Assembly (NCBI GenBank): GCA_963667785.2
Contig: CAXXMU010000002.1
Coordinates: 64,001-128,000, forward strand
Length of the DNA: 64,000 nt
Reading direction: 5' to 3'
Origin: Alphaproteobacteria bacterium
GTDB taxonomy: Bacteria; Pseudomonadota; Alphaproteobacteria; UBA828
Shown: positions 8,009 to 40,993 of the stretch, one piece after another
Position numbering within the stretch: position 1 is the first letter of the stretch
How the letters are laid out: each line of letters opens with the position of its first letter
Notes under the pieces: model-generated
Told to the model about the DNA's origin: nothing
The model's input: only the letters and a program-made list of their open reading frames with translations
Database searches by the model: none
Translations under genes and position numbers: made by a program

Positions 8009-8070
8009 GCGTGCCTGCGGACCGGCCACCCGCCCACTGTCCGCATGGCCTCCTAACATACTGATCTGAT

Positions 8071-8117
8071 TGGTACGCCCGCCTGGACTCGAACCAGGGA
8101 CCCTCTGATTAAAAGTC
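8071..8117 (-). repeat. att site: 47-bp duplicate of tRNA-Lys 3' half
   Basis: TGGTACGCCCGCCTGGACTCGAACCAGGGACCCTCTGATTAAAAGTC identical to 27637-27683; diverges just beyond the anticodon loop. Confidence 0.95.
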
Positions 8118-12549: not shown

Positions 12550-12869
12550 GACCGGGTTCTCCTCTCCTCCACCCTCACGTCCGGCGACCAGCTATCGCCG
12601 AGGGCATGTCTTCAGGCGACGTTGGCGAGACCATGTCCAGACTTTACGAATTGGGCCTCAGTGGAAGCCGTTCTTAGCGCTGGCAGGGCTCTCGGTACCA
12701 ACCGCCCGAGTATCGCGATTGAGCAGTCAATCCGCGAGCGAGAGGCGCCCCCTAACGCCTCTCGGAGAGCGCAAAGTAGCAGGAAAGTGTCCTTAGTGCC
12801 CTGCCGAGTACGCACAGGTATACTGAGTCCGCTCGACACACCCATCCCGTGCAACGTTCGGAACAGGCG

Positions 12870-14054: not shown

Positions 14055-14066
14055 CGGAGTCGGGCC

Positions 14067-17000: not shown

Positions 17001-17222
17001 GCCGCCGCAGCGGCCGCGACACGGCAGCGCTTCCGGCCGGTGTTCCTGACCACCCTCACCACGCTGCTGGGACTCTCGCCCCTGCTCTACGAGCGCAGTG
17101 ACGAGCTGGTCGGGTTCGTGCCCTTCGTCGTCAGCATGCTGGGCGGCCTCACGTTCTCCACCCTCTCGATCCTGTTCGTGCTGCCGGCATTAGTGATGAT
17201 CGTCGCGGGTCGTCACGACTAG
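14067..17222 (+). CDS. RND transporter permease (AcrB/AcrD/AcrF family)
   Basis: 1051 aa, NRVAANLL, YPGAAPQEVE, GIVVDDSVVVGE, RFRPVFLTTLTT. Confidence 0.93.
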   Translation: MSMTDAGSTNAGPAAQPGPTGLTSGLIAYFAGNRVAANLLMILLIVGGVLSGLQLIVQYYPDIEARRAAVSVLYPGAAPQEVEEDINRRIEEAVVGLPGVERVVSTASQSLGKVTVEMATFADTDAVFNDIQSAIDGIENFPPVRAEQPDVRLLKISHEVMTLAVVSSSLSEDGLRLAAEDLRDRVLALPSVSQVGLKGTRDREITIELSEEELRRHGLSIGEVSRKVRRASLNLTMGEIRTGTGSVILQTVAKRSVGQDFQDIPLLTHNDGTIMTLGDVARIRDGFVDEEVVTEVNGHPAVLVRIDATEEQSVVEMAEEIRNLLAVYSPPEGVSVSIWNDNASPIFDRLLEIVKNGAIGTILVFISLVLVFELRIALWMTVGIPLSFVGSLLFFDAADLTLNLGTIFGFFLLVGIVVDDSVVVGESIAAEREKGKNALDAAVSGARAMVGPLTIGAVTTILAFLPFLFITSPAFQIVNVFPYVAILVLLVSLVAAFFILPAHLSHGRRWSLSPLSDVQTQVGGWLDEVRDRVVAPAASWAVRNVWLSIVGALLVLVAAVLLLGSDAVRIVLFDENLSSTDNVQADIYLPVGAPFEETLAAADRFVEAAHSLNDRLEGTPVDAVSMIVGNIETGRKDGEKLNSSHLASVRLHLSDQADRSASPPEVERAWREAIGSVTNLEKAEFRSGRFAARPSVSYSLKHDHMETLRSAAAELREGMATVPGIYGIHDDLAPGKRHFEIELTPAGKAAGLTPALIGTQLRSSFHGVDVQRIQRGREEINVVVRYPAERRRSLSELASERIQRPGGGEIPLSLVATITEKREPATLTRIDGKRAARVNGRADTAVITPIQARQEVRNQVIPDLLEAYPGLAIEVEAGARDESDMLETLAVLVPIVLIAIYALIAAFLRSYWKPVIAVVGIPIAFAGAIVSHWILGWDLTTMSIFGMIAVGGVVVNDALVLLDRYNTIRRDNATIPAIAAAAAATRQRFRPVFLTTLTTLLGLSPLLYERSDELVGFVPFVVSMLGGLTFSTLSILFVLPALVMIVAGRHD

Positions 17223-17474
17223 TCGCGTCCCGTCGTGCGATTTGCGGCGGGCAACATGGGCCGCAGAGAGTCGTTTCCCGAATCGCCCGTCGCGATCACC
17301 CTGGATGACTCCAATGTCAACCACTTGATGTCACATGACAAATCAAACACCATGCACAGTCGTCGACAACCCACCAAGTGACCTGAAGGCTATGCTATCG
17401 AGGCGCAATGGGCATGCACGCGTGTCCGGCCCGTTCGCGGCCGCTACCGCCGTGCCCGGGCTCCGAGCGACAGC

Positions 17475-20400: not shown

Positions 20401-23400
20401 TTCTTCAGCCCTGCCCGGTCCCGAGAACGCCGGTGCGCCTGCAGACGGTGCTACATCCGGTCGCCAATTCCCCGTCCGAATTCACCTTCGTCATCTCCAC
20501 CCGGCCCTACGGCGGGGAAAGCAGGAGCGAGCCGCACTGTCGGGGCAAGGTGCGACTGTTGAGCGACCCGCCGGCGCCAGACACTCCGGGCAGGCTCGAG
20601 GACGTCGACCGCTCCGGCTACGCGCCAGTCGAGAACGGCTCAGGAGACGAACTCTACGAATGCTTCGAGGCAGTGCTGGGCGATACGTACCGCTACGGTC
20701 CCCACTGCAGAAACATCCGGCAGATCCAGCGCCACGTGTCGACCCGGTCCTATCTGGTCGATCTCGAAGTCGACGAAAGCCTGTGGGCCGACGGCCTAGA
20801 GGAGGGGTACGTCTGCTACCCCCCGCTGATCGACGGCGCATTTCAGGCGTTTCTCTACAGCCTGTTGGGTACGTCCGATCACCTGTGCATTCCACGGCGA
20901 ATCGAGCAAATGACGTTTCTCGGCGCGGCGGCGGGACCGCGGCTGACCTGTCTCCTGAGGGATCCTCCGGATCGCGCCCTGGATATCGACGACAAGGGCC
21001 AGTTCAGCCCTTTGGAGGGCGAGCGGCTGTCGGGCAGCATCAGCTTCTACGACCAGTCCAATGGAGCCCTCGTTGCCTACGTCCAGAAATACATCCATTT
21101 CGACTCGAACCTGAAAAGGGGGGACCTGCCCCACAGCAAGCACCGGATCGTCTGGCAGCCCAAGTTCCTGCCGAACGCCCAGGTGTTCGCCGACCGGCTG
21201 CCCGCCGGCGACATCGATCCCGTGGCGTTGATCGCCGCTCTTGAACGGCGCGTTGACGGCGAGGGCCGCGCGTGTCGCATCCTGGAGTTCGCCGGGTGCA
21301 GGGAGCCCGAGCAGACCATGCTCGAGCAGTGCGTCGGGCACCTGTCGAGTGCCGGAGGGCACGGCGAGTTCTGGCTCGTCAGCGACGATGAAGAAACCGC
21401 CGGGAATAACTACGAGGCGTTTCACGCGGCCGACGCCGCTCTGCGATTCGAATGCATCGACCCGGCCGAGCGCCAGGCGATCGGTCTCGACGAGGGTCTG
21501 CTGCGTCCGGGTGCGGTGGAGGTGCTCCTTCTGCATCGCGATACGGCCGCATTCTCCCCCGCCGACTGGGAGTTCTGGAGACGCCTGCTGGTGGCCGGAG
21601 GCCTGGCGCTGGTCTCTCACTCCGAAGGCGACGTACTCGAACCGGGCGCCGGATGGGCCGTCGTTCGCGCCGCGCCGCGCAGCACCCTGCTTCAGGCCCC
21701 GCAGTCGTGGCCGGACTCCCTGAACGCGACGGCTGTTCCGACGCCCCGTTGGGTGGTGGGTGAAGCGCACAGCCCGGCGCAGGACTGGGCCTCCCTGCTC
21801 GACGATCCGGAGGTGTACCCGATCGACTTTCAGCCCCTCGTCTGCGGTGAGGACCACGATATCGAGGAGTGGCCACGGGCGGCGGACGTGCAGGCTGTCG
21901 ACTTCTTCTGTGGTCGTGATCCGCAGGACCCCACCGGCGAGGGGGTGGTGTCGGCTCTCGTCGCCCTCGTCAGGGCACTGGTGTCGTACCGCACCGAGCA
22001 TGCGCATTCCCGGTGCCGCGTCACCGTTGTGACCCAGGGGGCCGCCTTCGATGTTCACGACCCGCGCGGGTGCGGTTTGTGGGGCGCGGTTCGCAGCATG
22101 GCGATCGAGGTGGGCGAGGACGCCGGTATCGACTTCCGTCAGGTGGATCTCGGTGCCGACGACGACCTGAAGACCCTGGCCTCGCTCGCTCGCTGCGATC
22201 TGCGCGATCGGGAGATCGCGGTGCGGGAGGGCCGCCTGTGGGTGCCCCGCATAGAGAGCATTCGTGACCATGCTCCCTGCGTCCCCGCCGGCGACGAAAC
22301 CACCTACCGCCTGTGCCTGGACAACCCGGGGCAGATCGGCGGGTTGCAGATGAAGACGTACGAACCCGCGGCGCTCGGGCCGGGCATGGTGGAGATCGAC
22401 GTGAAGGCAGCGGCGCTCAACTTCCGCGATGTCATGGTGACCTTGGGACTGCTGCCCTCGGCAGCCTACGAACGCTCCGCGCTGGGGCTGGAGGTCGGCA
22501 TGGAAGCAAGTGGAGTCGTGCGCCGGGTCGGCGAGGGTGTGGACCATTGCCTGGCCGGCGACGAGGTGGTTTTCACCAAGGGCGGGTGTATCGCCAATCG
22601 GGCAGTCGTCGACGCCCCCCTTGTGTTTTCCAAGCCCGCCCGCCTCGACATGGAGCAAGCCGCGTCTTCGCTGTCGGTCTACCTCACCGCGTACTATGCC
22701 CTTGTTCACCTGGCTCGGCTCTCCGAAGGTCAGAGTGTCCTCATTCACTCGGCCATGGGCGGCGTGGGGCAGGCCGCCATCGCGCTTGCCAGGCGCGCAG
22801 GGGCCACGATCTACGCAACGGCGGGAAGCGATGCCAAGCGCGAGCGGCTTCTCGAGCTCGGTGCGAGTGCGGCGTTCGATTCGCACAGCGAGAATTGGTA
22901 CGACGAGCTGATGGAAGCGACACGCGGCGAGGGTGTCGACGTGGTGCTGAATTCCCTCGCCGGCCGTCATCTCGCGCTGTGCCTGGAGGCTCTGCGTCCG
23001 GGCGGTTGGCATTGCGAGATTGGGAAGGTCGACATCTACTCCGACAACCCGCTAGGCCTCTACGTCTTCCGCAAGAACCTGCGCTTCGCGGCGGTCGACG
23101 TGGATCGCCTGATGGTCGATGACCCCTGGCTCCTGCGCCGACTCTCAGAGACCTGTCTCGACCTGCTCGAACGGGGCGAACTGCCGCCGTTGCCGATCAC
23201 GGTCTACGACTATGAGGACTACGCCAAGGCCCTGCGCTTGATGACCAGCGGCAAGCATCAGGGGAAGCTGGTGCTCAGGGCCCCGCCGGCCGGCGTTCAT
23301 CCGCGGTTCCCGATCGTCGATCGGCGTCCACTGCTCGACCCCGATGCGACCTACCTCGTGAGCGGCGGCCTCGGCGGATTCGGCCTGTCCCTGCTGCCCT

Positions 23401-24530
23401 ATCTCGTATCAATCGGAGCCCGCCATCTCACGTTGATGGATCGGGACCCCGAGCGCCGCCGCAACGCCGACTGGGTGAGCGAATCGACCGCGCTGCAATA
23501 CATGGACTGGGAGTGCGAGATCGACATCGTCGTTGGCGATGTCGCGATTGCGGCGGACGTTGAGCGCTGCGTCGCCTGCCTGCGCCGGCCGCTCAAGGGC
23601 GTCTTTCACTTCGCCGGTGTGCTCGATGACCGTCTGCTCGACACCATGTCGCGGGACTCCGTGGAGACGGTATTCGCTCCCAAGGCTACCGGCGCGCTGA
23701 ATCTTCACCGGGCGACCGCCGGGCATCCGCTCGACCTCTTCGTCATGGCCTCGTCCACTGCCTCAACCTTCGGCAATCCTGGACAGATCAACTACAGCGC
23801 CGCCAACGCTTACCTCGATGGCCTCGCAGTGTGGCGCCGCAGGCAGGGTTTGCCGGCGCTGTCCTACAACATTGCGGCGGTCGCCGAGGTCGGTATGGCC
23901 TCGCGAAACCACCATGTGCTGCGCATGCTGAGGATGGTCGGCATGCCCCCGGTGAGCGTTCACTTCGCAATCGCCAACCTCGACTACACGCTGCGCAGAC
24001 TGCCCGACAGCGACCACCTGGTGACCGCGCTGTTCAAGCGGGTTCCGTTGACCGTCGACTCTGCGGACTACATGCGCATCGGTCGCCTGATGAGCAACAA
24101 CGATGCGTTCCAGGGTCATTCCGACGACCGACTCACGCTCGAAACCGTGATGACGCAGATTGCCGAGAAGGTCGCCGAGCTATGCGGCCACGATGAAGGC
24201 GACATGGACGAGCCGTTGGCGAGCTTCGGATTCAATTCGATCTCCGTTGCCGAGCTCGTGGCGTATCTTCAGAATCAGTTCAACTTCCAGGTCAGCGCTC
24301 TGGAACTGATGACCACCGCCACCTGCCAGTCCTTGGCGCATGCGATCGTCCACAGAGCGGAACAGCCCGAGGAGGTGGAAGGCGAGACCGATGCGGTGGA
24401 GAGCGCGGACGCGCCTCTCTCCGGGCGGCTCCGCGGACGCCGAAGGCCGTCGGAATTCGCAAGCGTCCTGGAAGATCACTTTCCGCCAGCGCCCGGTGCG
24501 AGCCGAAACGAAATGACGACGGAGTCTTGA
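17475..24530 (+). CDS. mono-modular type I PKS/FAS, KS-AT-DH-(pseudo-MT)-ER-KR-ACP (SwfA-like)
   Basis: KS CTACSAG, EAHATGT, KSNVGH; AT GQGTQW, GHSSG, AFHS; DH HVVHHAAIMP; ER LIHSAMGGVG; KR GGLGGFG, YSAAN; ACP GFNSIS. Confidence 0.95.
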   Translation: MTSQRRESDVAIVGYGHRMPGGIRSDSDFWRLLTEREIVQEPVRDRYGRGHLPIGEFSGPGRLASPWEGLIRDSDELLFDRTLFGMSHNEMMKTEPQVRMLLNCAWETIEHAGWDFHALRNSPTGVFVGAQLPAVSNWRPLHGVNEYSVTSISVAMLANRISYHFNLMGSSIAYCTACSAGLSALHAAMNALLCGDCDQALVGSVTYLGSARMGSSFNLMGVISPEGKCHSFDAQANGYMRSEGAFVFALKPLVAAERDGDPIHAVIEASAVNAAGAADDAVGLPPGRNITAPTRHAQVELMRTAAARAGRTAGEFDYLEAHATGTVVGDRIEGNAIAEAFSGFDREVPLRVSSVKSNVGHMEAAAFHCAMLKVVLMMQRRTFAPTSKNHLVPNPEIDFDRCPMRVQTEVEPFPEHPVVVGINSFGFGGANGHCVVREYRPARPRIWSVALAPEAGYVVPLSARNAKSLARTAGQLREMLDRRPMDLYTLAGNLSRRRTHFSTRAALAVRDLQELEEGLDAVAEERAPVATVEEGEPRLTMVFAGQGTQWAGCGRALYGADPVFRRVIDAIEAHWREHSDVSLREACFSAPQSELDECELAQPVIFMLQCALVELFKTWGVYPDCVVGHSSGEVAAAYACGALSLGDATRLVFHRATLQQRTAGSGRMLAIGLDRCGVEELLDTLDVPFRLDANRPVQVEIACENAPANTVICGSETALQPVIEELDRRNLQNRLVPGNIAFHSRAMDAIREDVAAALSFLDERAFDLDVPFVSSVTGCLTERLDSAYWWSNIRQPVRFAAAMDIVKRDHRPHAVLELAPHCALQPVIAQCLADGVSTPTSIATFMRDGDTRNGFLESLGALFRAGVTLDFASRYPRPEPLPHLLPGHPRDEEKKADTTADDEFHNQAAEYSHGPLVGHRIPCDHLMFEARFSDRAFPWAADHVVHHAAIMPATGYIEMVLEAFGGVPVHFDVIEFLQPCPVPRTPVRLQTVLHPVANSPSEFTFVISTRPYGGESRSEPHCRGKVRLLSDPPAPDTPGRLEDVDRSGYAPVENGSGDELYECFEAVLGDTYRYGPHCRNIRQIQRHVSTRSYLVDLEVDESLWADGLEEGYVCYPPLIDGAFQAFLYSLLGTSDHLCIPRRIEQMTFLGAAAGPRLTCLLRDPPDRALDIDDKGQFSPLEGERLSGSISFYDQSNGALVAYVQKYIHFDSNLKRGDLPHSKHRIVWQPKFLPNAQVFADRLPAGDIDPVALIAALERRVDGEGRACRILEFAGCREPEQTMLEQCVGHLSSAGGHGEFWLVSDDEETAGNNYEAFHAADAALRFECIDPAERQAIGLDEGLLRPGAVEVLLLHRDTAAFSPADWEFWRRLLVAGGLALVSHSEGDVLEPGAGWAVVRAAPRSTLLQAPQSWPDSLNATAVPTPRWVVGEAHSPAQDWASLLDDPEVYPIDFQPLVCGEDHDIEEWPRAADVQAVDFFCGRDPQDPTGEGVVSALVALVRALVSYRTEHAHSRCRVTVVTQGAAFDVHDPRGCGLWGAVRSMAIEVGEDAGIDFRQVDLGADDDLKTLASLARCDLRDREIAVREGRLWVPRIESIRDHAPCVPAGDETTYRLCLDNPGQIGGLQMKTYEPAALGPGMVEIDVKAAALNFRDVMVTLGLLPSAAYERSALGLEVGMEASGVVRRVGEGVDHCLAGDEVVFTKGGCIANRAVVDAPLVFSKPARLDMEQAASSLSVYLTAYYALVHLARLSEGQSVLIHSAMGGVGQAAIALARRAGATIYATAGSDAKRERLLELGASAAFDSHSENWYDELMEATRGEGVDVVLNSLAGRHLALCLEALRPGGWHCEIGKVDIYSDNPLGLYVFRKNLRFAAVDVDRLMVDDPWLLRRLSETCLDLLERGELPPLPITVYDYEDYAKALRLMTSGKHQGKLVLRAPPAGVHPRFPIVDRRPLLDPDATYLVSGGLGGFGLSLLPYLVSIGARHLTLMDRDPERRRNADWVSESTALQYMDWECEIDIVVGDVAIAADVERCVACLRRPLKGVFHFAGVLDDRLLDTMSRDSVETVFAPKATGALNLHRATAGHPLDLFVMASSTASTFGNPGQINYSAANAYLDGLAVWRRRQGLPALSYNIAAVAEVGMASRNHHVLRMLRMVGMPPVSVHFAIANLDYTLRRLPDSDHLVTALFKRVPLTVDSADYMRIGRLMSNNDAFQGHSDDRLTLETVMTQIAEKVAELCGHDEGDMDEPLASFGFNSISVAELVAYLQNQFNFQVSALELMTTATCQSLAHAIVHRAEQPEEVEGETDAVESADAPLSGRLRGRRRPSEFASVLEDHFPPAPGASRNEMTTES

Positions 24531-24790
24531 CCATTCGCCAGCCCGGCCCGGATTCCATACCGACCAGGGCACCGGCACATTACAAAAAACTACATGCCTC
24601 CATGCGGCGCGTTGTCGGGAAGGTGGCACTCATGGATCGGACACGGCCTCCTCCGCAGCGTCGCACCCCTGGTTCTGCAGACCCGAGCATTCCCGGGGTG
24701 CTCGGTTTCCGATCCGCGGCCCAGCAGTCGCAGCCCGCGGCGACCGGGTGGGCTCAGGTTCGGCGCCCCCGGTAGCGAGCGAGACACGAG

Positions 24791-27286
24791 ATGGCTGAAA
24801 CACTCCCCGCTTCCCGCGTGGTGCCCTCCCTTGCTGGTCGCATGCCGATGCAGTGCCAGCGCGACCTCGACGGTTTGCGCAGTTTCATTCATTCCACCAT
24901 CGGGGAGGAATCGCCGGCCGAACCGGTATCTGCAAACGACTTCCGGGAAGTGCTGCTGACCGGCGCCACCGGGTTCGTGGGCCGCTTTCTGTTGCGCGAT
25001 CTCCTGCTGCAAGACGATAGCCTCGTCGTGCATTGCCTGGTCCGCGCGGACGGCGTCGAGCATGGCTTCGCGCGGATACGCGCCGCCCTGGAGCACGCCG
25101 AGATCTGGGACGACGCATTCGGGCCGCGCATCCGGGTCGTGGCCGGGGATATCCGCGCGCCTCGATTGGGTCTGAGCGATGCGAAATTCGACGATCTGTG
25201 CCGACGCATCGACGCGGTCTACCACCTCGCCGCCGACCTCTCCCTCGTGTCGTCCTACGCCTCGATACGCGACGTGAACGCGACCAGTCTTCGCAATGTG
25301 CTCGCGTTGTGCCTGCGAACGCGTTTCAAGCACGTCTTCTACGCTTCCACGATGGCCGTTTTCCCCGAGTACTTCTGCAATTTCTCGAACGAATTCAGTC
25401 GCAGTCGTATCGGACATCACATGCAGCCCGATCTGGCAACTATGAAGAGGCTGTTGCCGCTCGGTTTCCTTGGATACCCGTGGAGCAAGCTCGTTTCCGA
25501 GCAGGTCCTGCTCTTCGCGAACGCGGCCGGACTGCCGGTGGCGATTTTTCGCCTGCCGCAGACGGGGATGTCCAGCACAGGTTTCACGAACGCGAGCGCC
25601 GTCGCGCTCTCCATCTACCTCGCGGCGATACAGATCGAAATGGCTCCCGCCGGCTTCTCCATACAGAGCTGTGCCGAGCCGGTGGATACGCTCACCGAGA
25701 TATGCGCCGCAATCTCGGCGAATCCCGAGCGGCGGTTCACGATCTACCATTGCTGCGATCCGCAACCTCCGCATGACGATTTCGGGCCGGCCGATTTCGG
25801 ACTCTACTTGCGCGAAGTTCCATACGAGACGTTCAAGCGTGCCTGCGAGGCGCTTGGAGAGCGCTCTCCGCTGCACGGGCTGTGGACCCTGCTCGATTTC
25901 TTCGCATCGTACTGGTTCGCGGACGGCGAGGCCCGCGGCGTCGCTCCGGTCGACGATCGCGCCATTCGCGAGGACTGTCCCTTTCCTGTCCGGTGGCCGG
26001 CATTGCTCCTCCGGCATTCGCGCTCCTACGACTGGATACGGCGACAGGGCGATGGGTGGCCCTATCCGGTGCCGAAAGCCCGCCTGGACCTCGACCGCCT
26101 GATGGCGCAGGCCGAGGGTTACGCCGAACGCGTCGGCGTTCCCTTCGACCACACGTTTCCCGCGTGGATGCGTACGGGATTCCAGCGCCTTGTGGAGGTA
26201 CTCAGCGCACCACAGGCCGGATTGCTGGAGGAGAGACGCCCGCATCTCGTCTACGAACTGAACCGCCAGCTTCGCAACAATGCGGCGCTCGCCCGCGAGT
26301 GGCAGCAGCACCCCGAGATCGAGCGCGAGGAGATCGTGCGTCCGGTGTTCATCGTGGGGATCAATCGAACCGGCACCACGTTTCTGCACCGCATGATGGC
26401 GCGCGACGAAAGGTTCTGGACGCTGCGACGCTACGAGCTGTCGGAGCCGGTCCTGTCAAGCGGGGCGTACGATACCGTGGCGCGCACCGCCGGCGACCCG
26501 CGCCGACTTCACGTGAAGGAGGTGCTGGACTCCATTCGGGTCGTGGATCAGTTCGCCGAAATGCACCGCATCGACATCGACGAGCCCGAGGAGGATTTCC
26601 CGATCCTCAGGCAGTCCTTCGCATCCTGGGTCAACGCCGTCGCGTACTACGTGCCGGACTACCGCAGCTGGCTTGCCGCCACCGGTTCGGACAATGCCTA
26701 CGCCTATCACCGTCGCGTCATGCGGCACTTCACCTGGCAGCGCCGGCAGCGCGAGCGCGACGCCCGGAAGGCTTGGTTGTTCAAGATGCCCTTCCATCTC
26801 ATGGAGCTGGAGGCACTGCTCGCGAATTACCCGGATGCGGTTTTCATCCAGACCCATCGCGAGCCCACGCAGTTCATGGGATCGTGGAACAGCCTTGTGG
26901 ACCGGATACGCTCCGTCTCCATCGAGCCGCGCCCGCGGCACGACACCGGTGCCGAGCAGCTGGACCTGATGAGCGGCATGCTCAACGAGGCGATGCGGTT
27001 CCGGGCGTCGTGCCCCGAGCTCGAGGCGCGCTGGGTCGATGTGAACTACCGCGACCTGGTCGAGAACCCGATGGGGGTGGTCAGCGAAATTTACGAACGG
27101 TTCGATTGGCGGCTCGAGCCGGCGGCTACGGCCGAAATGGAGAGTTGGCTCGAACGGCAGGCGGAACAGCGTCGGCAAGAGCCGCCGCATCGATACAACC
27201 TGGAGGACTTCGGCCTCAACACAGAACGGGTCTCAGCCGCATTTGCGCCGTATCGGGAGTTCGTTGGCTCGCGGAAGATTGCGTAG
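24791..27286 (+). CDS. thioester reductase-sulfotransferase fusion (SwfB-like)
   Basis: N-terminal LLTGATGFVG and GYPWSK (extended SDR/R domain); C-terminal FIVGINRTGTTFLH PAPS-binding loop, KMP, THREP. Confidence 0.9.
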   Translation: MAETLPASRVVPSLAGRMPMQCQRDLDGLRSFIHSTIGEESPAEPVSANDFREVLLTGATGFVGRFLLRDLLLQDDSLVVHCLVRADGVEHGFARIRAALEHAEIWDDAFGPRIRVVAGDIRAPRLGLSDAKFDDLCRRIDAVYHLAADLSLVSSYASIRDVNATSLRNVLALCLRTRFKHVFYASTMAVFPEYFCNFSNEFSRSRIGHHMQPDLATMKRLLPLGFLGYPWSKLVSEQVLLFANAAGLPVAIFRLPQTGMSSTGFTNASAVALSIYLAAIQIEMAPAGFSIQSCAEPVDTLTEICAAISANPERRFTIYHCCDPQPPHDDFGPADFGLYLREVPYETFKRACEALGERSPLHGLWTLLDFFASYWFADGEARGVAPVDDRAIREDCPFPVRWPALLLRHSRSYDWIRRQGDGWPYPVPKARLDLDRLMAQAEGYAERVGVPFDHTFPAWMRTGFQRLVEVLSAPQAGLLEERRPHLVYELNRQLRNNAALAREWQQHPEIEREEIVRPVFIVGINRTGTTFLHRMMARDERFWTLRRYELSEPVLSSGAYDTVARTAGDPRRLHVKEVLDSIRVVDQFAEMHRIDIDEPEEDFPILRQSFASWVNAVAYYVPDYRSWLAATGSDNAYAYHRRVMRHFTWQRRQRERDARKAWLFKMPFHLMELEALLANYPDAVFIQTHREPTQFMGSWNSLVDRIRSVSIEPRPRHDTGAEQLDLMSGMLNEAMRFRASCPELEARWVDVNYRDLVENPMGVVSEIYERFDWRLEPAATAEMESWLERQAEQRRQEPPHRYNLEDFGLNTERVSAAFAPYREFVGSRKIA

Positions 27287-27355
27287 CCCCATGGCGTATC
27301 GATAGGAGTGGGCGCAGCCGCCGCCCACCGTTCCAGTTCTGGGGGCGATACGGCC

Positions 27356-27525
27356 ATGAGCGTCTGCCCCGGGGTAACACCCAGGATTGTCGGGGTGAAG
27401 TTCCAGGGGATCAGGTCGTCGATGCATGACATGGGGTGCATGTCGACCGACGATCCGGCGCAGGGTGTCGGCGAGATACGCCTGCGGATTGACGTCGCTG
27501 AGTTTGCAGGTGCCGATGAGGCTGG
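27356..27525 (-). pseudogene. IS66 transposase (TnpC) C-terminal remnant with degenerate right end
   Basis: SLIGTCKLSDVNPQAYLADTLRRI then, in another frame, HPMSCIDDLIPWNF; ends GGCAGACGCTCAT resembling the IS66 terminus GGACGCTTAC. Confidence 0.8.
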
Positions 27526-27636
27526 CGCTCCGCGCCGAAGGGCGGATCAGGAACAAAAGTGCAAAACCGTTCCCGAAAAAGTGTAAAACAAGATGCAGAA
27601 GTGTTGACCTATTGTTCTCTAAGTTATTGAGTTGAA

Positions 27637-27712
27637 TGGTACGCCCGCCTGGACTCGAACCAGGGACCCTCTGATTAAAAGTCAGATGCTCTACCGCCTG
27701 AGCTACGGGCGC
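27637..27712 (-). tRNA. tRNA-Lys (TTT)
   Basis: Reverse complement GCGCCCGTAGCTCAGGCGGTAGAGCATCTGACTTTTAATCAGAGGGTCCCTGGTTCGAGTCCAGGCGGGCGTACCA, 76 nt. Confidence 0.96.
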
Positions 27713-27725
27713 GCCCTGTCGCGAG

Positions 27726-27754
27726 ACGATAGGGAGGCGCCGGCGGAGGGTCAA
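27726..27754 (-). promoter_or_regulatory. sigma70 promoter of tRNA-Lys
   Basis: TTGACC-17 bp-TATCGT on the minus strand. Confidence 0.65.
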
Positions 27755-27855
27755 GCGGCCGTCCCCGCCGTATTCCCGTTTCATACCCGCCGCGTTCGCG
27801 CCGCGTCCCTGCCGCCGTTTCGGCCGCCGGGCGGGGGCTGTAGAGTGTCACCGCC

Positions 27856-29031
27856 ATGAACCAGCACGAGAAGCCGGCCCTGCTGCCGACCGGTCTGCGC
27901 GACCTGCTGCCGCCCGACGCGGGCGCCGAGGCCGCGCTTGCCGAGGCGTTGCTCGCGCGCTTCGCGGCCCACGGCTACGAACGGGTCAAGCCGCCGCTGG
28001 TCGAGTTCGAGGACAGCCTGCTGAGCGGCGCCGGCGCCGGGCTCGCCGACCAGACCTTCCGCCTGATGGACCCGGCCTCGCACCGCATGCTGGCGCTCCG
28101 CAGCGACCTCACGCCGCAGATCGCGCGCATCGCGGCCTCCCGCCTCACCCGCAGCCCGAGGCCGCTGCGCCTCAGCTACGCCGGCGAGATCCTGCGGGTG
28201 CGGGGCAGCGAGCTCCGGCCGGAGCGCCAGTTCCGCCAGGTCGGCTTCGAGCTGATCGGCATCGGCGCCGGCGCCGCCTGCGATGCCGAGGTCATCCTGC
28301 TGGCCGCAGATGCGCTCGCCGGCCTCGGGATCGAGGAAGGCCTCTCCGTGGATCTCAACGCGCCGACTCTGGTGGCGTCGCTGCTGGATGACGCAGGTCT
28401 CGACGCCGGCCAGGCGGTGCCGCTACGCGAGGCGCTGGATCGCAAGGACGCGACCGCGGTGGCCGAGGCGGGCGGCGAGGTGGCGGAGCGCCTGCTCTCC
28501 CTGCTGCGCGCCACCGGCCCGGCGGAGACGGCGCTTGATGCGCTCGGGCCGCTCGCGCTCCCCGGCGCGGCGGGGAGGGCGCTGGCCGCGCTGACCGGGA
28601 TCGCGGCGCTGCTGCGCGAGGCGGCGCCGGCGCTCCCCATCACCGTCGACCCGGTGGAATGGCGCGGCTTCGAGTACCACACCGGTACGGGCTTCAGCCT
28701 GTTCGCCGGCGGCGTGCGCACCGAGCTCGGCCGCGGCGGCCGCTATTCGGTGGGCGACACCGGCGCGGACGAGGAGGCCGTCGGCTGCACGCTCTACCTC
28801 GATACGCTGCTGCGCGCCGCGCCCGCGCCCCCGGCGCCCCGCCGGATCTATCTGCCCTACGGCACCGCGCGGGCGGCCGGCGCCGCGCTCCGCGAGGAGG
28901 GCTGGATCACCGTCGCCGGCCTCGCGCCCGCGGACGACCCGGCGGCGGAGGCCGCGCGGCTCGGCTGCGATCACCTCTGGCAGGCCGGCGGCGCACGCCC
29001 GCTCGCCGCTGTGGACGGCGAAGAGGGCTGA
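27856..29031 (+). CDS. hisZ: ATP phosphoribosyltransferase regulatory subunit
   Basis: [43 protein letters not shown]; upstream of purA. Confidence 0.92.
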
Positions 29032-30326: not shown

Positions 30327-30329
<3 letters not shown>

Positions 30330-30552
30330 AGCATTATCCGACCATACGAGGTCACCACGGCTTGACTCCCACCTCCCCCTGTCCCCCTCCCCCAAGGGCG
30401 GAGGGGGAACGCGACGGCGCCGCCTTCTCTCCCTCTCCGCCCTTGGGGGCGGAGAGGGCCGGGGTGAGGTGGGGGAAGCTCGGGCAACACCGCACGAAGA
30501 TTGGGCACCCGCAGCAACTCGCTGCGATCGTGTCTGAACGAAAAGTGCTCTA
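30327..30552. repeat. TAGAGCA...TGCTCTA MITE-like element with internal REP-like hairpins (copy 1)
   Basis: Terminal inverted repeats; internal CCCTCTCCGCCC...GGGCGGAGAGGG hairpin; homologous in inverted orientation to 38688-38919. Confidence 0.8.
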
Positions 30553-30563
30553 GCCCGGGGAAG

Positions 30564-33552: not shown

Positions 33553-34557
33553 TCAGCCGCCCGGCGGAGCGGGGTCGAGACAGCGGCCGGGCACGGCGGT
33601 GAGGGTGTCCGCCGCCTCGTCGACGATGCGCCGGACCAGCTCGCCGGCGCCGGGCCGGTCGGCGATCAGGTCGAGCCCCTCGCCGGCGAAGGTGACCGCC
33701 GTCTCCGTATCGCCGGCACGCTGCGCTGCGAAGAAGCGCTCGCGCATCGCCTCGCCCTCCGCGCGCAACTCGTCGTCTCGCTCGTGCCAGCGGTCGGCGA
33801 ATGCGTTGCGGATGGCCCGCCCGGTGTAGGGTTCCGGCCAGGTGATGCCGCGGGCGGTATCGAACGCGCTGGTGCGGAGCGTATCGTCGCCGCCCGAGCG
33901 CTCGATCAGCGCCTTCTGGTTCGCGTGCCCCAGCGCCTCCCGCGTCGCCCAGAAGCGGGTGCCGACCAGGACGGCCTCCGCGCCCAGCACCAGGGCTGCG
34001 GCGAGCCCGCGGCCGTCGGCGATGCCGCCTGCGGCGGCGACCGGCACCGGCGCCACCGCATCGACCACCGCCGGCACCAGCGGCAGGGTGGCCCGGTCCG
34101 CCCCGTGGCCGCCGGCCTCGGTGCCCTGGGCGACGATGATCTGGGCGCCGTTCGCCGCCGCCGCCCGTGCATCCTTCAGGGTCTGGACCTGGCAGATCAG
34201 GACGGCGCCGGCGTCGCGGATCTTCGCGGCATGGGGCGCGACGTCGCCGAAGGAGAGCATGACGGCCTTCGGCCGGAAGCCCAGCGCGTGGTCGAGGGCG
34301 GCGGGCCGCCGCTCCAGCGCCCAGGTGATGAAGCCGATTCCGACGGCATGATTGCCCGCCTTGCCGAACTCGCTCCGCACCCAGTCGTCGGAGCCAAAGC
34401 CGAGCGCGGGGTCGGCATAGCCGGCGCCGATCAGGCCCAGCCCGCCGGCCGCCGAGACCGCGCCGGCCAGCGCGCCGCCGGCGACGCCGCCCATCGGCGC
34501 GAGCAGGACCGGGTGGTCGATGCCGAGCAGGCGGGTGATCGCCGTTGAGAGCGCCAT
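33553..34557 (-). CDS. nitronate monooxygenase family flavoprotein
   Basis: LAPMGG, AQGTEAGGH, AAGGIADGRG, VGTRF. Confidence 0.9.
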   Translation of the reverse strand: MALSTAITRLLGIDHPVLLAPMGGVAGGALAGAVSAAGGLGLIGAGYADPALGFGSDDWVRSEFGKAGNHAVGIGFITWALERRPAALDHALGFRPKAVMLSFGDVAPHAAKIRDAGAVLICQVQTLKDARAAAANGAQIIVAQGTEAGGHGADRATLPLVPAVVDAVAPVPVAAAGGIADGRGLAAALVLGAEAVLVGTRFWATREALGHANQKALIERSGGDDTLRTSAFDTARGITWPEPYTGRAIRNAFADRWHERDDELRAEGEAMRERFFAAQRAGDTETAVTFAGEGLDLIADRPGAGELVRRIVDEAADTLTAVPGRCLDPAPPGG

Positions 34558-34790
34558 GTGCCTCGGCATAGCGGCTTCGCCGGCCGTTGCCAAGCGGAAC
34601 GCCTCCCGTTCCCCGCCGGCGTGCGCGCGGCCGCCTGCGCGCCGGGGCCGCCATGCGCGCGGGGCCTGTCTCCCCTGCACCTGCCGCGATTGCCCGGCCG
34701 GGCGGGCCGTGATATCGACAGCGGCCCGGGAGCCGCACGCAAGGCGCCGCGAGACGCGACGGCGCGGGCACGGGCGGGCAAGGGGGGATC

Positions 34791-35183
34791 ATGGCAGAGC
34801 GTTTCGCGATGACCATCGACGGCCGCACGGTCGTCGCCGAATTGCTGGGGCGCGAGGCGCCCAACGTCGTCAAGGCGTTCACCGAGAGCCTGCCGTGCGA
34901 GAGCTTCTCGGTGCATGCCAAGTTCGCGGGCGACGAGCTGATCGTGATGCTCCCGTTCTACTGCGATTCCGAGAACGAGATCCTCAACGTCAAGCCCGGC
35001 GACATCGGCTTCTATCCGGGGCGTCAGACCGCCTGCATCTTCTACGGCGATACGAAGCCCTTCGGAAAGGTGAGCGTGTTCGCGAAGATCGTGGAGGGAC
35101 TGGAGCACCTGAAGCCCGCCGGCAGGAAGATCCTCGCCAAGGGGCCGCTCCCGGTCCGGCTCGAGCTGGTGCAGGGAGGGTAG
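34791..35183 (+). CDS. DUF3830/cyclophilin-like fold protein
   Basis: LLGREAP..AF.ESLP, HAKFAGDEL, EN....PGDIGFYPG, IFYG, FAKIVEG pattern. Confidence 0.75.
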   Translation: MAERFAMTIDGRTVVAELLGREAPNVVKAFTESLPCESFSVHAKFAGDELIVMLPFYCDSENEILNVKPGDIGFYPGRQTACIFYGDTKPFGKVSVFAKIVEGLEHLKPAGRKILAKGPLPVRLELVQGG

Positions 35184-35186
35184 GGC

Positions 35187-35666
35187 ATGGCCGCAACGGA
35201 AACCGCCGCCATCGTCGAGCGGCTGGAGAGGTTCGCCAAGCGCAACTGGCGCAGCGAGCCCGGCGACATCACCCGGCTGCGCGCGCATTCGCTGCCGCCG
35301 ATGGGAACCACGCCGCCGGTGCTCTACGCCAACTTCAACACCTTCTGGATGGGCGAGAACATCCAGGTCGTGCGCCAGCTCGCGCTCGACAAGGCGCTGC
35401 CGCCGGCCGCCCTCAACACCATGGCGGCGGCGATCCTGAACCGCCACGCCGGCCGGCTCGCCAAGTGGAAGCTGACCAACACGGTCAAGCTCGTGCGCGA
35501 GCTCGCCGCCTATTTCGAAGGCGGCGGCGCCGGGAGCCACGGCGAGGTGGTGCAGGTCTGCGAGGCGGCGATGGTGGCGTTCGACCGGATCAACGCCTGG
35601 ATCGACGCGATGATCCCGTGGGCGCACTTCGACAAGAAGGTCAAGCTGCTCGACGCGGCCGGCTGA
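35187..35666 (+). CDS. helical protein resembling cucumopine synthase C-terminal domain
   Basis: NWRSEPGDITRL near N-terminus and DRINAWIDAMIPW near C-terminus; all-helical character; recognised from memory of the family. Confidence 0.55.
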   Translation: MAATETAAIVERLERFAKRNWRSEPGDITRLRAHSLPPMGTTPPVLYANFNTFWMGENIQVVRQLALDKALPPAALNTMAAAILNRHAGRLAKWKLTNTVKLVRELAAYFEGGGAGSHGEVVQVCEAAMVAFDRINAWIDAMIPWAHFDKKVKLLDAAG

Positions 35667-35692
35667 CGGCAGCGCGGGGGGGAGCGAAGGCC

Positions 35693-36598
35693 ATGTGCGG
35701 CGTCGGCGGCGTCTTCTTCAAGACCACCGAGCATCATCGCAAGACCGGCGAGATCGCCTACCACGTGCTGGACGGCATCTACCGGCGCGGACCGGATTCC
35801 ACCGGGCTCGCGTTCGTCCAGCCGGCCGGCGAGGACCGCCTCTACATCGGCATCAACTGCGAGGAGCCCGGCGGCGGCGGTCGCGCGCTCGCGCTGCTCG
35901 ACGAGCTCGGCCGGGTCGAGCACGCCACCGACGGCGAGGGCTACATCCGCACCACGCTCCGCTACGACGGCGACGACGAGACGCTGGTGGACGCGATCGA
36001 TTCGCTCGGGCCCGCCTACACGGTCGCCAGCATCGGCGCGCAGCTCGAGGTGGTGAAGCACATGGGCGGCGTCGAGCAGCTCGAGGAGAAGTTCACCATC
36101 ACCGACTACGACGGGCCGCTCGCCATGGGGCTCACGCGCTACGCCACCGAGAGCACGATCGACTTCACCCACGGCCAGCCGCTCTCGGCGAGGCTGCATC
36201 GCGATCTCGCGATCATGCACAACGGCCACATCACGAACTTCCACCATCTCCGCTATCACTTCGAGCGCGCCGGCTACACCTTCGCCACCGGTAACGATTC
36301 CGAGGTGATCGCCGTCACCATCGCCGACGAGATGGGGAAGGGGGCGAGCTTCCGCGAGGCGCTGGAGCGCTCCGTCTCCATCCTCGACGGATGCTTCACC
36401 TACATCGCCGTGACCGCGGACGAGGTCGGGGTCGTCAAGGACCCCTATGCCGCCAAGCCGCTGGTGGTCGGCGAGACCGACCGTCTGGTGGCGGTGTCGT
36501 CCGACTGCTGGTCGCTGCGCGACGGGGTGGGCGAGGACATCGAGGTCTGGGAGCCGGGCGCCGGCGAAGTGGTGACATGGCGGATTCCGCTCCACTGA
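35693..36598 (+). CDS. glxB: class II glutamine amidotransferase (GlxB/MgsA)
   Basis: N-terminal MCG, RGPDSTG, RYATES, HNGHITN, DSEVIA. Confidence 0.85.
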   Translation: MCGVGGVFFKTTEHHRKTGEIAYHVLDGIYRRGPDSTGLAFVQPAGEDRLYIGINCEEPGGGGRALALLDELGRVEHATDGEGYIRTTLRYDGDDETLVDAIDSLGPAYTVASIGAQLEVVKHMGGVEQLEEKFTITDYDGPLAMGLTRYATESTIDFTHGQPLSARLHRDLAIMHNGHITNFHHLRYHFERAGYTFATGNDSEVIAVTIADEMGKGASFREALERSVSILDGCFTYIAVTADEVGVVKDPYAAKPLVVGETDRLVAVSSDCWSLRDGVGEDIEVWEPGAGEVVTWRIPLH

Positions 36599-37281
36599 CC
36601 ATCGACTGCGCCGGGCGGTCGACGCGCGCGATCAACGAGGAGATCCGCCGCGCGGCCGACGACGGCGTGCCGGTTGTGGAGCTCCTCAACCCGCAGGCGC
36701 GGCACAATCTCGGCGTCTCGATCCTCAAGCCCATCCATGTCGTCTACCGCGGCCATGTCGGCTCCTACACGGCCGGGCTCTGCGACGGCATCACCGCCGA
36801 GGTCCATGGCACCGCCGGCTGGGGCGTGGCCGACAACCTGATGAGCGGCGAGGTGGTCGTGCACGGCAACGCCGCCACCTCGGCGGCGCCGTCGATTCGC
36901 GGCGGGCGCGTCGTCGTGCGCGGCGACGCGGGCCCGCGGTCCGGCATGATCCTGAAGAAGGGCGAGCTCATCGTCGGCGGCAACACCGGCTACATGTCGG
37001 GCTTCATGATGCAGAACGGCCGCATGATCGTTTGCGGCGACGCCGATACCGGGCTCGGCGATTCCATGTATCAGGGCGTGATCTTCCTCGGCGGCCGGGC
37101 GAAGGAGCTCGGCTCCGGCCTCGAGGAGGTCGATGTCGAGAACGGCGAGCTCGACGAGGTCGGGGCGCTGCTCGACCGCTTCGAGATCAAGGCGCCGGCG
37201 GCGTTCCGCAAGCTCCGGTCGGACCGCAAGCTGTGGCACTTCAACAAGCATGACTTCGCTGCCTGGAAGGACGTGCTATGA
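36577..37281 (+). CDS. glxC: GXGXG beta-helix protein (GlxC/MgsB)
   Basis: Repeated GxxGxxxG turns, ADNLMSG, final LWHF; between glxB and glxD. Confidence 0.85.
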   Translation: MADSAPLTIDCAGRSTRAINEEIRRAADDGVPVVELLNPQARHNLGVSILKPIHVVYRGHVGSYTAGLCDGITAEVHGTAGWGVADNLMSGEVVVHGNAATSAAPSIRGGRVVVRGDAGPRSGMILKKGELIVGGNTGYMSGFMMQNGRMIVCGDADTGLGDSMYQGVIFLGGRAKELGSGLEEVDVENGELDEVGALLDRFEIKAPAAFRKLRSDRKLWHFNKHDFAAWKDVL

Positions 37282-38690
37282 GCGAGACTCCGAGCGCACC
37301 GCCCGCGGCGCACGCGGGCGATTCCACGGTCGAGGTTCTGGACGAGGCGCGGCCTGCGCCCAACGGCGCCTACCCGCGGCCCGAGAGCTTCAGCGGAGTC
37401 TGGGCGCCCGAAGTGATCGAGGAGATTCAGGAGAAGGCCGCGCTCGGGCGCTACCAGATTCGCGGCCAGGCGACGAAGCGCGCAGGGCTCCCCTCCTTCG
37501 ACGACCTCGTGTTCGTGCCGGCCGGCCTCTCGCGCATGCCGCTCGAAGGCTACCGCGAGAAGTGCGACACGCGGGTGGTGATCGGCGAGGGCGCGTGCGA
37601 GAGGCCGCTCGTCCTGGAGCGGCCCATCATGATCGCCGGCATGAGCTTCGGCGCGCTCTCGGTCCACGCCAAGCGGGCGCTCGGCATGGCGGCGAGCCGC
37701 TGCGGCATCTCCACCTGCACCGGCGAGGGCGGCATGCACCACGAGGAGCGCCGCTACTCCGACAAGCTGGTGATGCAGTACCTGCCGAGCCGCTACGGCA
37801 TGAACCCCTACGACCTCAAGAAGGCCGACATGATCGAGATCGGCGCCGGCCAGGGCGCGAAGCCCGGCACCGGCGGCGTCCTGCTCGGGCTCAAGATGTC
37901 GGACGAGGTGGCGGAGATGCGCGACCTGCCCGAGGGCGTGGACCAGCGCAGCCCCTGCCGCCATCCGGACTGGATGGGCGCCGACGACCTCTACATGAAG
38001 CTGGAGGAGATCCGCGAGGTCACCGAGTACAAGGTGCCGATCTCCATCAAGGTGGGGGCCGCGCGCATCGCCAACGACGTGCGCATCGCGGCCAAGGCGG
38101 GCGTCGACGCGATCGTCTTCGACGGCATGGAGGGCGGCACCGCCGCCTCGCCCACCATCCAGCTCGACCATGCCGGCATTCCCACGATCGCCGCCGTCGC
38201 CGAGGCCGCCGAGTCCCTCGCCGACATGGGCAAAAAGGACACGATGAAGATCATCGTCGGCGGCGGCATCCGCAACGGGGCGGACGCGGCGAAGTGCATC
38301 GCGCTGGGCGCCGACGTGGTCTATCTCGGCACCGCGCCGATCATCGCCATGGGCTGCCACAAGCCGATCTATCTCGAGGACTACGCCCGCCTCGGCACCT
38401 CGCCCTACGAGTGCCAGCACTGCCACACCGGGCTCTGCCCGGTCGGCATCACCACCCAGTTGCCCAAGCTGATGGAGCGCCTCGACGTGGACGAGGCGGC
38501 CGACAGCGTGACCAACTACCTCAACGCGCTGACCATGGAGATCCAGCTCTTCGCCCGCGCCTGCGGCAAGAACCGGGTGAGCGACCTCGACCCCAACGAC
38601 CTCCGCGCGCTGACCCACGACGTGGCCATGATGACCGGCGTCGACATGGTGGGCCTCGGCGGACGCACCCCCTGGTGGAAGAAGTTCTAG
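37278..38690 (+). CDS. glxD: FMN-binding glutamate synthase family protein (GlxD/MgsC)
   Basis: MSFGALS, TGEGGM, GQGAKPGTGG, RSPCRHPDW, CHTGLCPVGITTQ. Confidence 0.9.
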   Translation: MSETPSAPPAAHAGDSTVEVLDEARPAPNGAYPRPESFSGVWAPEVIEEIQEKAALGRYQIRGQATKRAGLPSFDDLVFVPAGLSRMPLEGYREKCDTRVVIGEGACERPLVLERPIMIAGMSFGALSVHAKRALGMAASRCGISTCTGEGGMHHEERRYSDKLVMQYLPSRYGMNPYDLKKADMIEIGAGQGAKPGTGGVLLGLKMSDEVAEMRDLPEGVDQRSPCRHPDWMGADDLYMKLEEIREVTEYKVPISIKVGAARIANDVRIAAKAGVDAIVFDGMEGGTAASPTIQLDHAGIPTIAAVAEAAESLADMGKKDTMKIIVGGGIRNGADAAKCIALGADVVYLGTAPIIAMGCHKPIYLEDYARLGTSPYECQHCHTGLCPVGITTQLPKLMERLDVDEAADSVTNYLNALTMEIQLFARACGKNRVSDLDPNDLRALTHDVAMMTGVDMVGLGGRTPWWKKF

Positions 38691-38919
38691 CGCACAATCC
38701 GACCGGACGAGACCATACCCAATCGCCACAGGTTCTCACCTGTTGTGCGGTGCGGGCCGAGACTCCCCCACCTCACCCCGGCCCTCTCCGCCCCCAGGGG
38801 CGGAGAGGGAGTAACAGTCGGCGCTGCTCGCGTTTCCCCTCCGCCTTTGGGGGAGGGGGACAGGGGGAGGTGGCATTCGTTCGGCCTGTCGTGACCCGGT
38901 ATGGTCGGACAATGCTCTA
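38688..38919. repeat. MITE-like element (copy 2, inverted)
   Basis: Imperfect terminal inverted repeats CTAGCGCACAATCCGACC / GGTCGGACAATGCTCTAG; reverse complement aligns with 30327-30500. Confidence 0.8.
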
Positions 38920-40417: not shown

Positions 40418-40993
40418 TCAGCCGCGCAGCCAGGTCTCGGACCAGGCGAGGCAGCAGGAAGACGCCGCGCGCCCGAACATGACGTTCTCGTAAGCCCCGC
40501 CCTGGGCGCGCGTTCCCGCCACCTCGAGCGTGGCGGTGCGGCACGGCGTGAGGCAGCTGTAAACGGCCCACGGGCCCGTGTCGTCGTTGTCGGGCGGCAG
40601 CGTGAGCATGAAGGGCTCGCCCATGTCCGACCAGCTCAGCTCGATGCGGCCGTCGGCGGAATCGACGATCTCGCGATAGCCGGAGCGGAAGGCGCCCTCG
40701 CGCGAGAACGCGGCCTCGGCCACGGGCAGGGACGTGTCGGCGAAGGGCGGGTTCAGGATCGCCTCCAGCTCGCTCTGCAGCCAGCGCGCCAGGCTCTCGT
40801 TGTCGGCGTAGAGCCTGACCTCGCCGCCGGTGGCGTCCGAGCGGATGAAGAGGCAGGTGCCGGGGCCGCCCGGCGAGATCAGCGCGCGCCAGTGGGCGCA
40901 GACGGTGGTCTCCGGCCCGTCGGCCTCGGTCTTGAGCCGCAGGAAGGAGTTCTCCCCGGTGAAGTGAACCTGGTTCGGATCGATGGCGGGCAT
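40418..40993 (-). CDS. hypothetical protein
   Basis: Host-like codon usage, RBS GAGGGAG, in operon between neighbours; TGEN and AWSETW look like conserved motifs. Confidence 0.75.
   Translation of the reverse strand: MPAIDPNQVHFTGENSFLRLKTEADGPETTVCAHWRALISPGGPGTCLFIRSDATGGEVRLYADNESLARWLQSELEAILNPPFADTSLPVAEAAFSREGAFRSGYREIVDSADGRIELSWSDMGEPFMLTLPPDNDDTGPWAVYSCLTPCRTATLEVAGTRAQGGAYENVMFGRAASSCCLAWSETWLRG

Follow-up and report, generated by a model that had tools for sequence, protein, structure and literature searches.

The window analysed here is a 64,000 nucleotide stretch of an alphaproteobacterial genome (lineage UBA828; contig CAXXMU010000002.1, positions 64,001 to 128,000 of the forward strand), and its subject is a five-gene operon in which a pair of small genes precedes a trio encoding a split, GlxBCD/MgsABC-like glutamate synthase. 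On structural models the products of genes 1 and 2 are two halves of one protein of the McbB/KslB fold, and the pair is a real, conserved and uncharacterised variant of this known fold in a probable new amine pathway. As a tentative reading, held with somewhat less than even confidence, the pair would catalyse the aldehyde-releasing step of amine degradation, in which a C=N adduct of an oxidised N-alkylglutamate is converted to glutamate and an aldehyde. The five open reading frames lie on the plus strand at 34791..38690, separated by gaps of 3 and 26 bp followed by overlaps of 22 and 4 bp, and their coordinates bear out the tight packing given in a preliminary description of this DNA.

Gene 1, 34791..35183, plus strand, 130 aa: cyclophilin-like beta-barrel half (DUF3830) of the McbB-fold enzyme (Pfam, PDB sequence matches, profile alignment)
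Gene 2, 35187..35666, plus strand, 159 aa: helical-bundle half, remote Cucumopine_C homologue (model, fold searches, Pfam matches of homologues)
Gene 3, 35693..36598, plus strand, 301 aa: GlxB/MgsA-like class II glutamine amidotransferase (Pfam GATase_6)
Gene 4, 36577..37281, plus strand, 234 aa: GlxC/MgsB-like GXGXG subunit (Pfam GXGXG)
Gene 5, 37278..38690, plus strand, 470 aa: GlxD/MgsC-like glutamate-synthase subunit binding flavin mononucleotide (FMN), with a C-terminal Cys cluster motif (Pfam Glu_synthase)

The preliminary description had likened gene 1 to DUF3830/cyclophilin-like proteins and gene 2 to the C-terminal helical bundle of McbB and cucumopine synthase, and both assignments stood. 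Gene 1 scored 49.8 bits against the Pfam DUF3830 (PF12903) gathering score of 26, also passed the Cyclophil_like cut-off, and matched TM1367 and 3kop by sequence in the PDB. An AlphaFold model of gene 2, built from 44 homologues (pLDDT 90.1), was searched against 48,161 chains, and the similarity to the McbB C-terminal domain that had been proposed as a check was found: the best match was McbB (3x27; Z 17.0, root-mean-square deviation 2.8, 151 residues aligned) and the second KslB (9k0a, Z 15.2), with the next fold at Z 11.0. Foldseek returned nothing at E ≤ 0.001 for this model, though its top 32 ranks were KslB and McbB chains; the gene 2 sequence alone gave nothing meaningful against the PDB, a weak match to haemolysin E was discarded as a chance match between helices, and the ESM Atlas held no usable neighbours. 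Gene 2 has no Pfam match at E ≤ 0.1 and does not itself reach the gathering score of Cucumopine_C (PF18631), but 17 of its 44 scanned homologues match this family at E ≤ 0.1 and three of the 44 pass the cut-off. The two halves are joined in nature, as at L024:4574-5455, with eight full and two partial gene 1-gene 2 fusions among 66 representative homologues (E ≤ 0.001) and a fused gene at 7 of the 29 genome loci sampled. A profile of 12 natural fusions matched McbB across both domains (E 2.4e-14), and the model of one fusion aligned with McbB over 281 residues (Z 28.2, root-mean-square deviation 2.9). Both parts of the McbB fold, a cyclophilin-like barrel and a helical bundle, are present in the pair.

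Prediction of the complex, also suggested in the preliminary description, was consistent with this assignment and indicates that genes 1 and 2 probably form an alpha2beta2 assembly. The 2+2 complex scored 0.90 against 0.24 for the best control, the runs agreed in at least 74% of contacts and partner pLDDT was at least 88; the mark used for the score is reached by 116 of 157 solved pairs and by 2 of 215 mismatched pairs. The score is likely helped by, and may be accounted for by, likeness to McbB, and it is a prediction rather than a demonstration of binding. The barrel also resembles the DUF3830/TM1367 proteins 3KOP and 1ZX8 (Z 19.3 and 18.7, respectively), of which 3KOP shares the Lys and Glu of gene 1 described below and TM1367 the Glu and Cys. 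These are single barrels of unknown function, whereas here the barrel is always paired with a helical bundle. A second, stand-alone DUF3830 gene of this genome (L035:7474-8010; G000:C2 473.5-474 kb) lacks Lys44 and Glu49, and no helical partner was found for it. DUF3830 found no mention in the literature searched.

The known catalytic residue of the fold is replaced in the pair. McbB Glu97 corresponds to KslB Glu274 and AsKslB Glu276, the latter two being described as indispensable in parts of PMC12012969 and PMC12547825, and profile alignment to McbB (with a numbering offset of 21, checked against Leu85 as named in part of PMC12547825) places Pro90 of gene 1 at this position. Proline occupies it in 65 of 66 distinct homologues. 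Since the essential Glu is lost, the pair, judged by its sequence, falls outside the Pictet-Spenglerases as they are defined, despite its McbB fold. In gene 1, Lys44, Glu49, Met53, Gln79, Thr80 and Cys82 are invariant (66/66), and Arg32, Glu57, Arg86, Arg90 and Lys93 of gene 2 are kept in 92 of 93 sequences. Residues 42-47 of gene 1, of which 43-47 are invariant, correspond without gaps to the McbB loop whose backbone contacts the carboxylate of the amino acid. Of the two 2-oxoglutarate-binding residues of KslB (Lys264 and Arg256), Lys264 seems to be Thr80 here, a correspondence mapped only through McbB His87. Alignment to KslB residues named in the papers suggests that Lys44, Glu49 and Cys82 would face the pocket.

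What the pair shares with McbB (PDB 3X27) and with KslB/AsKslB (PF18631, the family that also holds the cucumopine and mikimopine synthases) is thus the whole-length fold, the McbB domain order and the carboxylate loop. It differs in consisting of two chains, in the Pro in place of the catalytic Glu, in its invariant Lys44, Glu49 and Cys82, in sequence (13-16% identity) and in a genomic context that is catabolic and, in relatives, linked to microcompartments. The characterised PF18631 members described in part of PMC12536604 are all synthases.

The trio that follows the pair has the composition of MgsABC, with a Cys-initiated glutamine amidotransferase, a GXGXG subunit and an FMN domain. Gene 3 starts Met-Cys and the N-terminal nucleophile Cys is kept in 37/37 homologues; identity to the Sinorhizobium meliloti proteins is 32% (gene 3, GlxB), 39% (gene 4, GlxC) and 52% (gene 5, GlxD). 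In a careful tree of the MgsC/GlxD subunit the canonical rows, only two in number, stood on their own long branch, and monophyly of the pair-linked FMN subunits (support 55/97) was neither shown nor rejected; a pair-linked clade at support 80 in a quick tree was not confirmed by it. MgsABC converts gamma-glutamyl-methylamide to N-methylglutamate but is not biochemically characterised in detail, according to part of PMC6237917. Two further trios were seen in this genome. One (L032:1105-7584; G000:C1 835-842 kb) is accompanied by its own glutamine synthetase (GS)-like and flavoprotein genes and an unannotated 130-aa gene and adjoins dimethylformamidase-like, adenosine-deaminase-like and polyamine-type transporter genes, forming another amine module; in the other (L033:7780-13175; G000:C2 696-701 kb) the GXGXG and FMN subunits are fused, and a GltD-like Fe-S flavoprotein comes next.

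Linkage of the pair to glxBCD in other genomes, on which the preliminary description had staked its proposal, was borne out in both gene orders. Among the 29 genome loci gene 1 is adjacent in 28, subunit B in 27 and subunits C and D in 26, and the missing genes fall at contig ends except in a Desulfobacteraceae locus (L029). The pair precedes the trio in 22 loci, assigned by title to Alphaproteobacteria or Proteobacteria, and in six loci from Chloroflexota (SAR202/Dehalococcoidia) the trio comes first with a fused gene after it. Within the order to which the window belongs, gene 2 is present in 34 of 49 genomes. Its distribution elsewhere is patchy (3 of 401 Chloroflexota genomes sampled have gene 2, and among 301 genomes from the phylum of the Desulfobacteraceae locus one has the fused form, the centre genome included in each case). 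Codon differences from three close relatives are synonymous more often than not in both small genes.

One clade of GS-like ligases adjoins the operon at 12 of the 29 genome loci and at 49 of 80 metagenome loci, the latter being the best 80 of 128. This genome carries the orthologue on another contig, at G000:C1:579208-580554 (70% and 51% identity to two linked copies, other paralogues being about 30% identical). Across the 49 genomes of the order, which as kin are not independent, the ligase occurs in 37: gene 2 and the ligase are both present in 32, gene 2 only in two, the ligase only in five and neither in ten. The ligase scores below the GmaS (TIGR03105) and PuuA cut-offs and lacks the ammonium Asp and the Glu flap of GS, and all six clade members aligned (6/6) have Asn at the position of GmaS Asp177, a residue strictly conserved in GmaS according to part of PMC7948447. 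These features make it probable, on sequence, that the ligase forms gamma-glutamyl amides from a compound other than ammonia and that it is no typical methylamine enzyme. Its residues do not fix the amine, as no characterised ligase is close and the best PDB matches are ordinary GS. The stated absence of gmaS and mgd held near the operon, where neither gmaS nor mgdABCD was found, but not genome-wide for gmaS: a canonical GmaS is encoded at L144:9391-10695, standing alone with no mgsABC beside it. Canonical MgsABC was not found among the three trios of this genome, the best reaching 52% identity, and since a canonical GmaS is present without it methylamine stays a possible substrate.

By analogy, the whole pathway may be paralogous to the N-methylglutamate pathway (GmaS, MgsABC/GlxBCD, MgdABCD), with which it shares a three-gene split glutamate synthase with an intact Cys nucleophile, a linked GS-like ligase and, often, a sarcosine-oxidase-like flavoprotein. 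It differs from that pathway in its divergent trio (32-52% identical to S. meliloti GlxBCD), its ligase without Asp177, the additional McbB-fold enzyme and the aldehyde-to-acid genes of relatives. Adjacent folate-binding Mgd subunits were not seen at pair-linked loci.

Relatives of the operon suggest what the pair may release. Shell or PduL genes lie beside the pair in 46 of the 80 metagenome loci, and a comparable locus occurs in two Chloroflexota genomes, in only one of them with shell genes. Full metabolosome sets (L039, L042, L050 and L084) comprise shell genes (BMC-H, BMC-P), PduL as phosphotransacylase, acetate kinase, amino-acid permeases, a sarcosine-oxidase-like flavoprotein and an acylating aldehyde dehydrogenase that scores above the PRK15398 (NCBIfam) cut-off and is closest in the PDB to 5JFL and 4C3S, which we take to be PduP-class enzymes. 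At many of these loci gene 2 bears an N-terminal extension of 60-160 residues. Counted over low-GC loci with at least 2.3 kb downstream, shell genes are present in 11/11 with the extension, in 0/8 split loci without it (one of the eight lacking a clear start and two having a PduL match only) and in 1/3 fused loci; among high-GC loci they are present in 4/4 with the extension, in 3/3 without it and in 0/1 fused. The extension may be encapsulation-peptide-like, a likeness judged by eye; in two loci (L113 and L117) it is the aldehyde dehydrogenase that is extended at its N-terminus. Because the aldehyde that an encapsulated enzyme produces is kept inside metabolosomes (PMC9397018, in the part consulted), the pair is the best candidate for the aldehyde-making encapsulated enzyme of these loci. 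The EUT, PDU and GS-containing MIC2 metabolosomes have in common with these loci the shell genes, the acylating aldehyde dehydrogenase, PduL, acetate kinase and an extended core enzyme, although MIC2 has other enzymes than the pair loci in the parts of its description consulted (Sutter et al. 2021, PMC8217296). The parts of the same catalogue that were searched list no microcompartment type containing DUF3830 or a subunit of glutamate synthase, and a literature search for a link between Pictet-Spenglerases and microcompartments returned nothing on this system.

A pathway can be proposed in which the GS-like ligase, encoded elsewhere in the genome, would turn R-CH2-NH2 into a gamma-glutamyl-amide and the trio, as would follow from MgsABC, would move the amine onto the 2-oxoglutarate skeleton to give an N-alkylglutamate. 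A flavin amine oxidase would convert this to an imine or cyclic adduct. The pair would then hold the amino-acid carboxylate by its conserved backbone loop and cleave the C=N adduct to glutamate and R-CHO. This would be the step of a Pictet-Spengler reaction in which the iminium forms, run in reverse, with Lys44, Glu49 and Cys82 taking the role of Glu97. In relatives, where the genes for this were seen, the aldehyde would pass through acyl-CoA and acyl-phosphate to the acid inside the microcompartment. As a guess, the substrate is a small C2-C3 alkyl- or alkanolamine in the first place and methylamine in the second. Neighbouring genes offer some sources for the oxidation step: amine oxidases occur in 28 of the 80 metagenome and 3 of the 29 genome loci, with a sarcosine-oxidase-like gene directly 5' of gene 1 in most long low-GC loci. 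An opine-oxidase-like cluster lies beside three related loci and is found elsewhere in this genome at 55-59% identity, and it is present also in genomes without the pair. An ornithine-cyclodeaminase-like gene adjacent in two loci could provide another way to an N-alkyl amino acid. Literature searches on an ethylamine/N-ethylglutamate route and on TynAB returned nothing on this system.

Several observations weigh against the pair being an aldehyde-releasing enzyme. Simple imines hydrolyse unaided and have less need of an enzyme, and the placing of Lys44, Glu49 and Cys82 in the pocket comes from alignment. No oxidase adjoins the operon in the window or at any of the six loci from Chloroflexota genomes, and the oxidases found at other loci are of two types, about 28% alike. 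This genome has no match at E ≤ 1e-8 to BMC-H, BMC-P, BMC-T, PduL or acetate kinase; in high-GC loci shell genes also accompany 3/3 pairs without the gene 2 extension; and the metagenome loci are partly near-copies, hence not independent, and many are short. At the Desulfobacteraceae locus the fused gene stands alone, neither trio nor ligase being close by. In one genus, five genomes (G013, G015, G019, G020 and G022) keep the trio without gene 1 or gene 2, three of them retain the ligase, and another genome (G016) has only a fragment of gene 2. Absence in the five represents loss, because their FMN subunits nest in the tree among pair-bearing ones, and the pair is therefore dispensable in those genomes and may be accessory. 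A dimethylformamidase-like gene or a CocE-like hydrolase is still next to the trio in these five.

A broader form of the proposal, which is possible but rather doubtful, makes the pair the signature enzyme that produces the aldehyde, both in a metabolosome missing from the catalogue and in a small-amine route (ethanolamine, ethylamine, aminopropanol) free of B12, pyridoxal phosphate and radicals; glutamate/2-oxoglutarate would serve as a recyclable electron sink, the pair would act by C-N cleavage or imine tautomerisation, and the window would hold the shell-free version. The clean loss of both genes from trio-keeping genomes is also what would be expected if the pair were instead a metabolite-repair enzyme, rescuing a dead-end side product of the ligase or trio (a lactam, hydroxylactam or aldehyde-amino-acid adduct), possibly in a methylamine pathway, with Cys82, Glu49 and Lys44 as an amidase-like triad. 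The invariance of these three residues, the presence of canonical GmaS in a genome whose best trio is only 52% identical to MgsABC, and dimethylformamidase-like genes adjoining 4 of the 29 loci are all consistent with repair. Nevertheless, it leaves unexplained why the gene 2 extension tracks shell genes and why aldehyde-to-acid genes surround the pair, the linked ligase lacks GmaS Asp177, and the Cys, being present in TM1367-type barrels too, may be structural; repair is considered unlikely on balance.

Smaller probabilities attach to the remaining explanations. The many loci without an adjacent oxidase would be accounted for by a cofactor-free transamination, in which the pair tautomerises (1,3) an amine/2-oxoglutarate ketimine, with Lys44 as base, to an aldimine that yields aldehyde and glutamate with no separate oxidase. 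Pictet-Spenglerases of the same fold do bind amine/2-oxoglutarate iminium, and Lys44 appears to align with a loop residue of AsKslB that points its side chain into the pocket. Against this, the sarcosine-oxidase-like gene 5' of gene 1 in most long low-GC loci would be superfluous, the oxoglutarate-binding Lys264 of KslB is seemingly Thr here (as mapped through McbB), and precedent was not found in the literature searched, making this explanation improbable. Slightly less credence is given to a biosynthetic role, in which the pair, as a Pictet-Spenglerase or opine synthase, would join 2-oxoglutarate or an aldehyde to an amine or amino acid, although this is what the characterised members of the fold do in the literature consulted and both fold and carboxylate loop are retained: the indispensable Glu274/Glu276 is Pro in 65/66 sequences, and the neighbours are uptake, hydrolase and aldehyde-oxidising genes rather than tailoring enzymes. 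The undescribed amine-glutamate conjugate pathway of the preliminary description is supported, with cleaving of the conjugate fitting better than making it, but not its suggestion of cucumopine-type synthesis with 2-oxoglutarate. Equally far from likely is a non-catalytic subunit that carries a labile intermediate or couples the trio to a microcompartment or to regulation; loss of the known catalytic Glu and dispensability in some genomes would suit it, but the Lys, Glu, Cys, Gln and Thr invariant across phyla look like an active site, and the Desulfobacteraceae locus has a fused gene without any trio to serve.

A reverse, cleaving direction for the McbB fold is made plausible by analogy with opine plasmids. 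A plasmid search with a fusion identified a split pair on the mikimopine Ri plasmid pRi1724 (WP_010900212 and WP_010900213; L146:11959-12926, pRi1724 27055-28022), consisting of a DUF3830 protein and a Cucumopine_C protein (89 bits), so that splitting is not unique to the window. It adjoins a fused 308-aa gene, taken from its place and domains as mikimopine synthase, together with genes for an ATP-binding cassette (ABC) transporter and hydantoinase/oxoprolinase. The pRi1724 pair resembles genes 1 and 2 in order, near-abutment and catabolic-looking neighbours, but is about 30% identical in the barrel and, unlike them, keeps the catalytic-loop Glu and has no trio or ligase nearby. No function for it was found in the literature searched; opine catabolic genes usually adjoin the T region, according to part of PMC8087989, and the pRi1724 pair, which itself borders the T region, is a candidate mikimopine-cleaving enzyme. 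A plasmid of Sinorhizobium medicae carries a similar pair (L147). Plasmids of Shinella and Neorhizobium encode another fused McbB-like family, about 29% identical (L148:9917-10777 and L149:9935-10792), with a 579-aa B12-binding protein, a pyrroline-5-carboxylate-reductase-like gene and a branched-chain ABC transporter as neighbours.

If true, a branch of this fold that is catabolic and uses another active site would bring the fold into primary metabolism, hint at the origin of Pictet-Spenglerases and offer a lead on the breakdown of opines such as mikimopine. The data also point to an unstudied paralogue of the N-methylglutamate pathway, in most genomes of an alphaproteobacterial order as well as in SAR202 and soil bacteria, which matters when mgs-like genes serve as markers of methylamine use. 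In the soil relatives, the pair would be a candidate for the core enzyme of a kind of microcompartment that is missing from the parts of the catalogue searched.

The preliminary description had suggested that neighbouring amidases feed the operon, a weak proposal since they are adjacent in only 6 of the 29 loci, and these six are close kin (87-91% identity). On the same ground neither the amidases nor the asparaginase was accepted as a core component. A divergent nitronate-monooxygenase-like gene (33553-34560, minus strand) between the amidases and gene 1 was likewise rejected, no full-length match being found at this place in 29 related loci, and is probably a recent insertion. No sigma-70 promoter match was found and terminator matches were near chance level. 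RNA runs cover only small shares of the 64-kb stretch, and RNA-library contigs of relatives that bridge genes 1-2-3, being no demonstration of transcription, were not used as evidence. The operon, the nitronate-monooxygenase gene and the amidases lie between two oppositely oriented copies of a dispersed repeat of approximately 230 bp (30327-30553 and 38687-38919); with 34 matches of at least 150 bp in the genome, the repeat is common and does not mark specific ends. A 191-aa protein (40418-40993, minus strand) without Pfam or NCBIfam match is encoded next to asparaginase in 7 of the 29 related loci at 80-92% conservation. A lower-GC island (0.60-0.68) at 8000-27290 ends just before hisZ-purA and contains a 2351-aa type I polyketide synthase, a reductase-sulfotransferase fusion, an RND-type transporter pair and a radical SAM gene.

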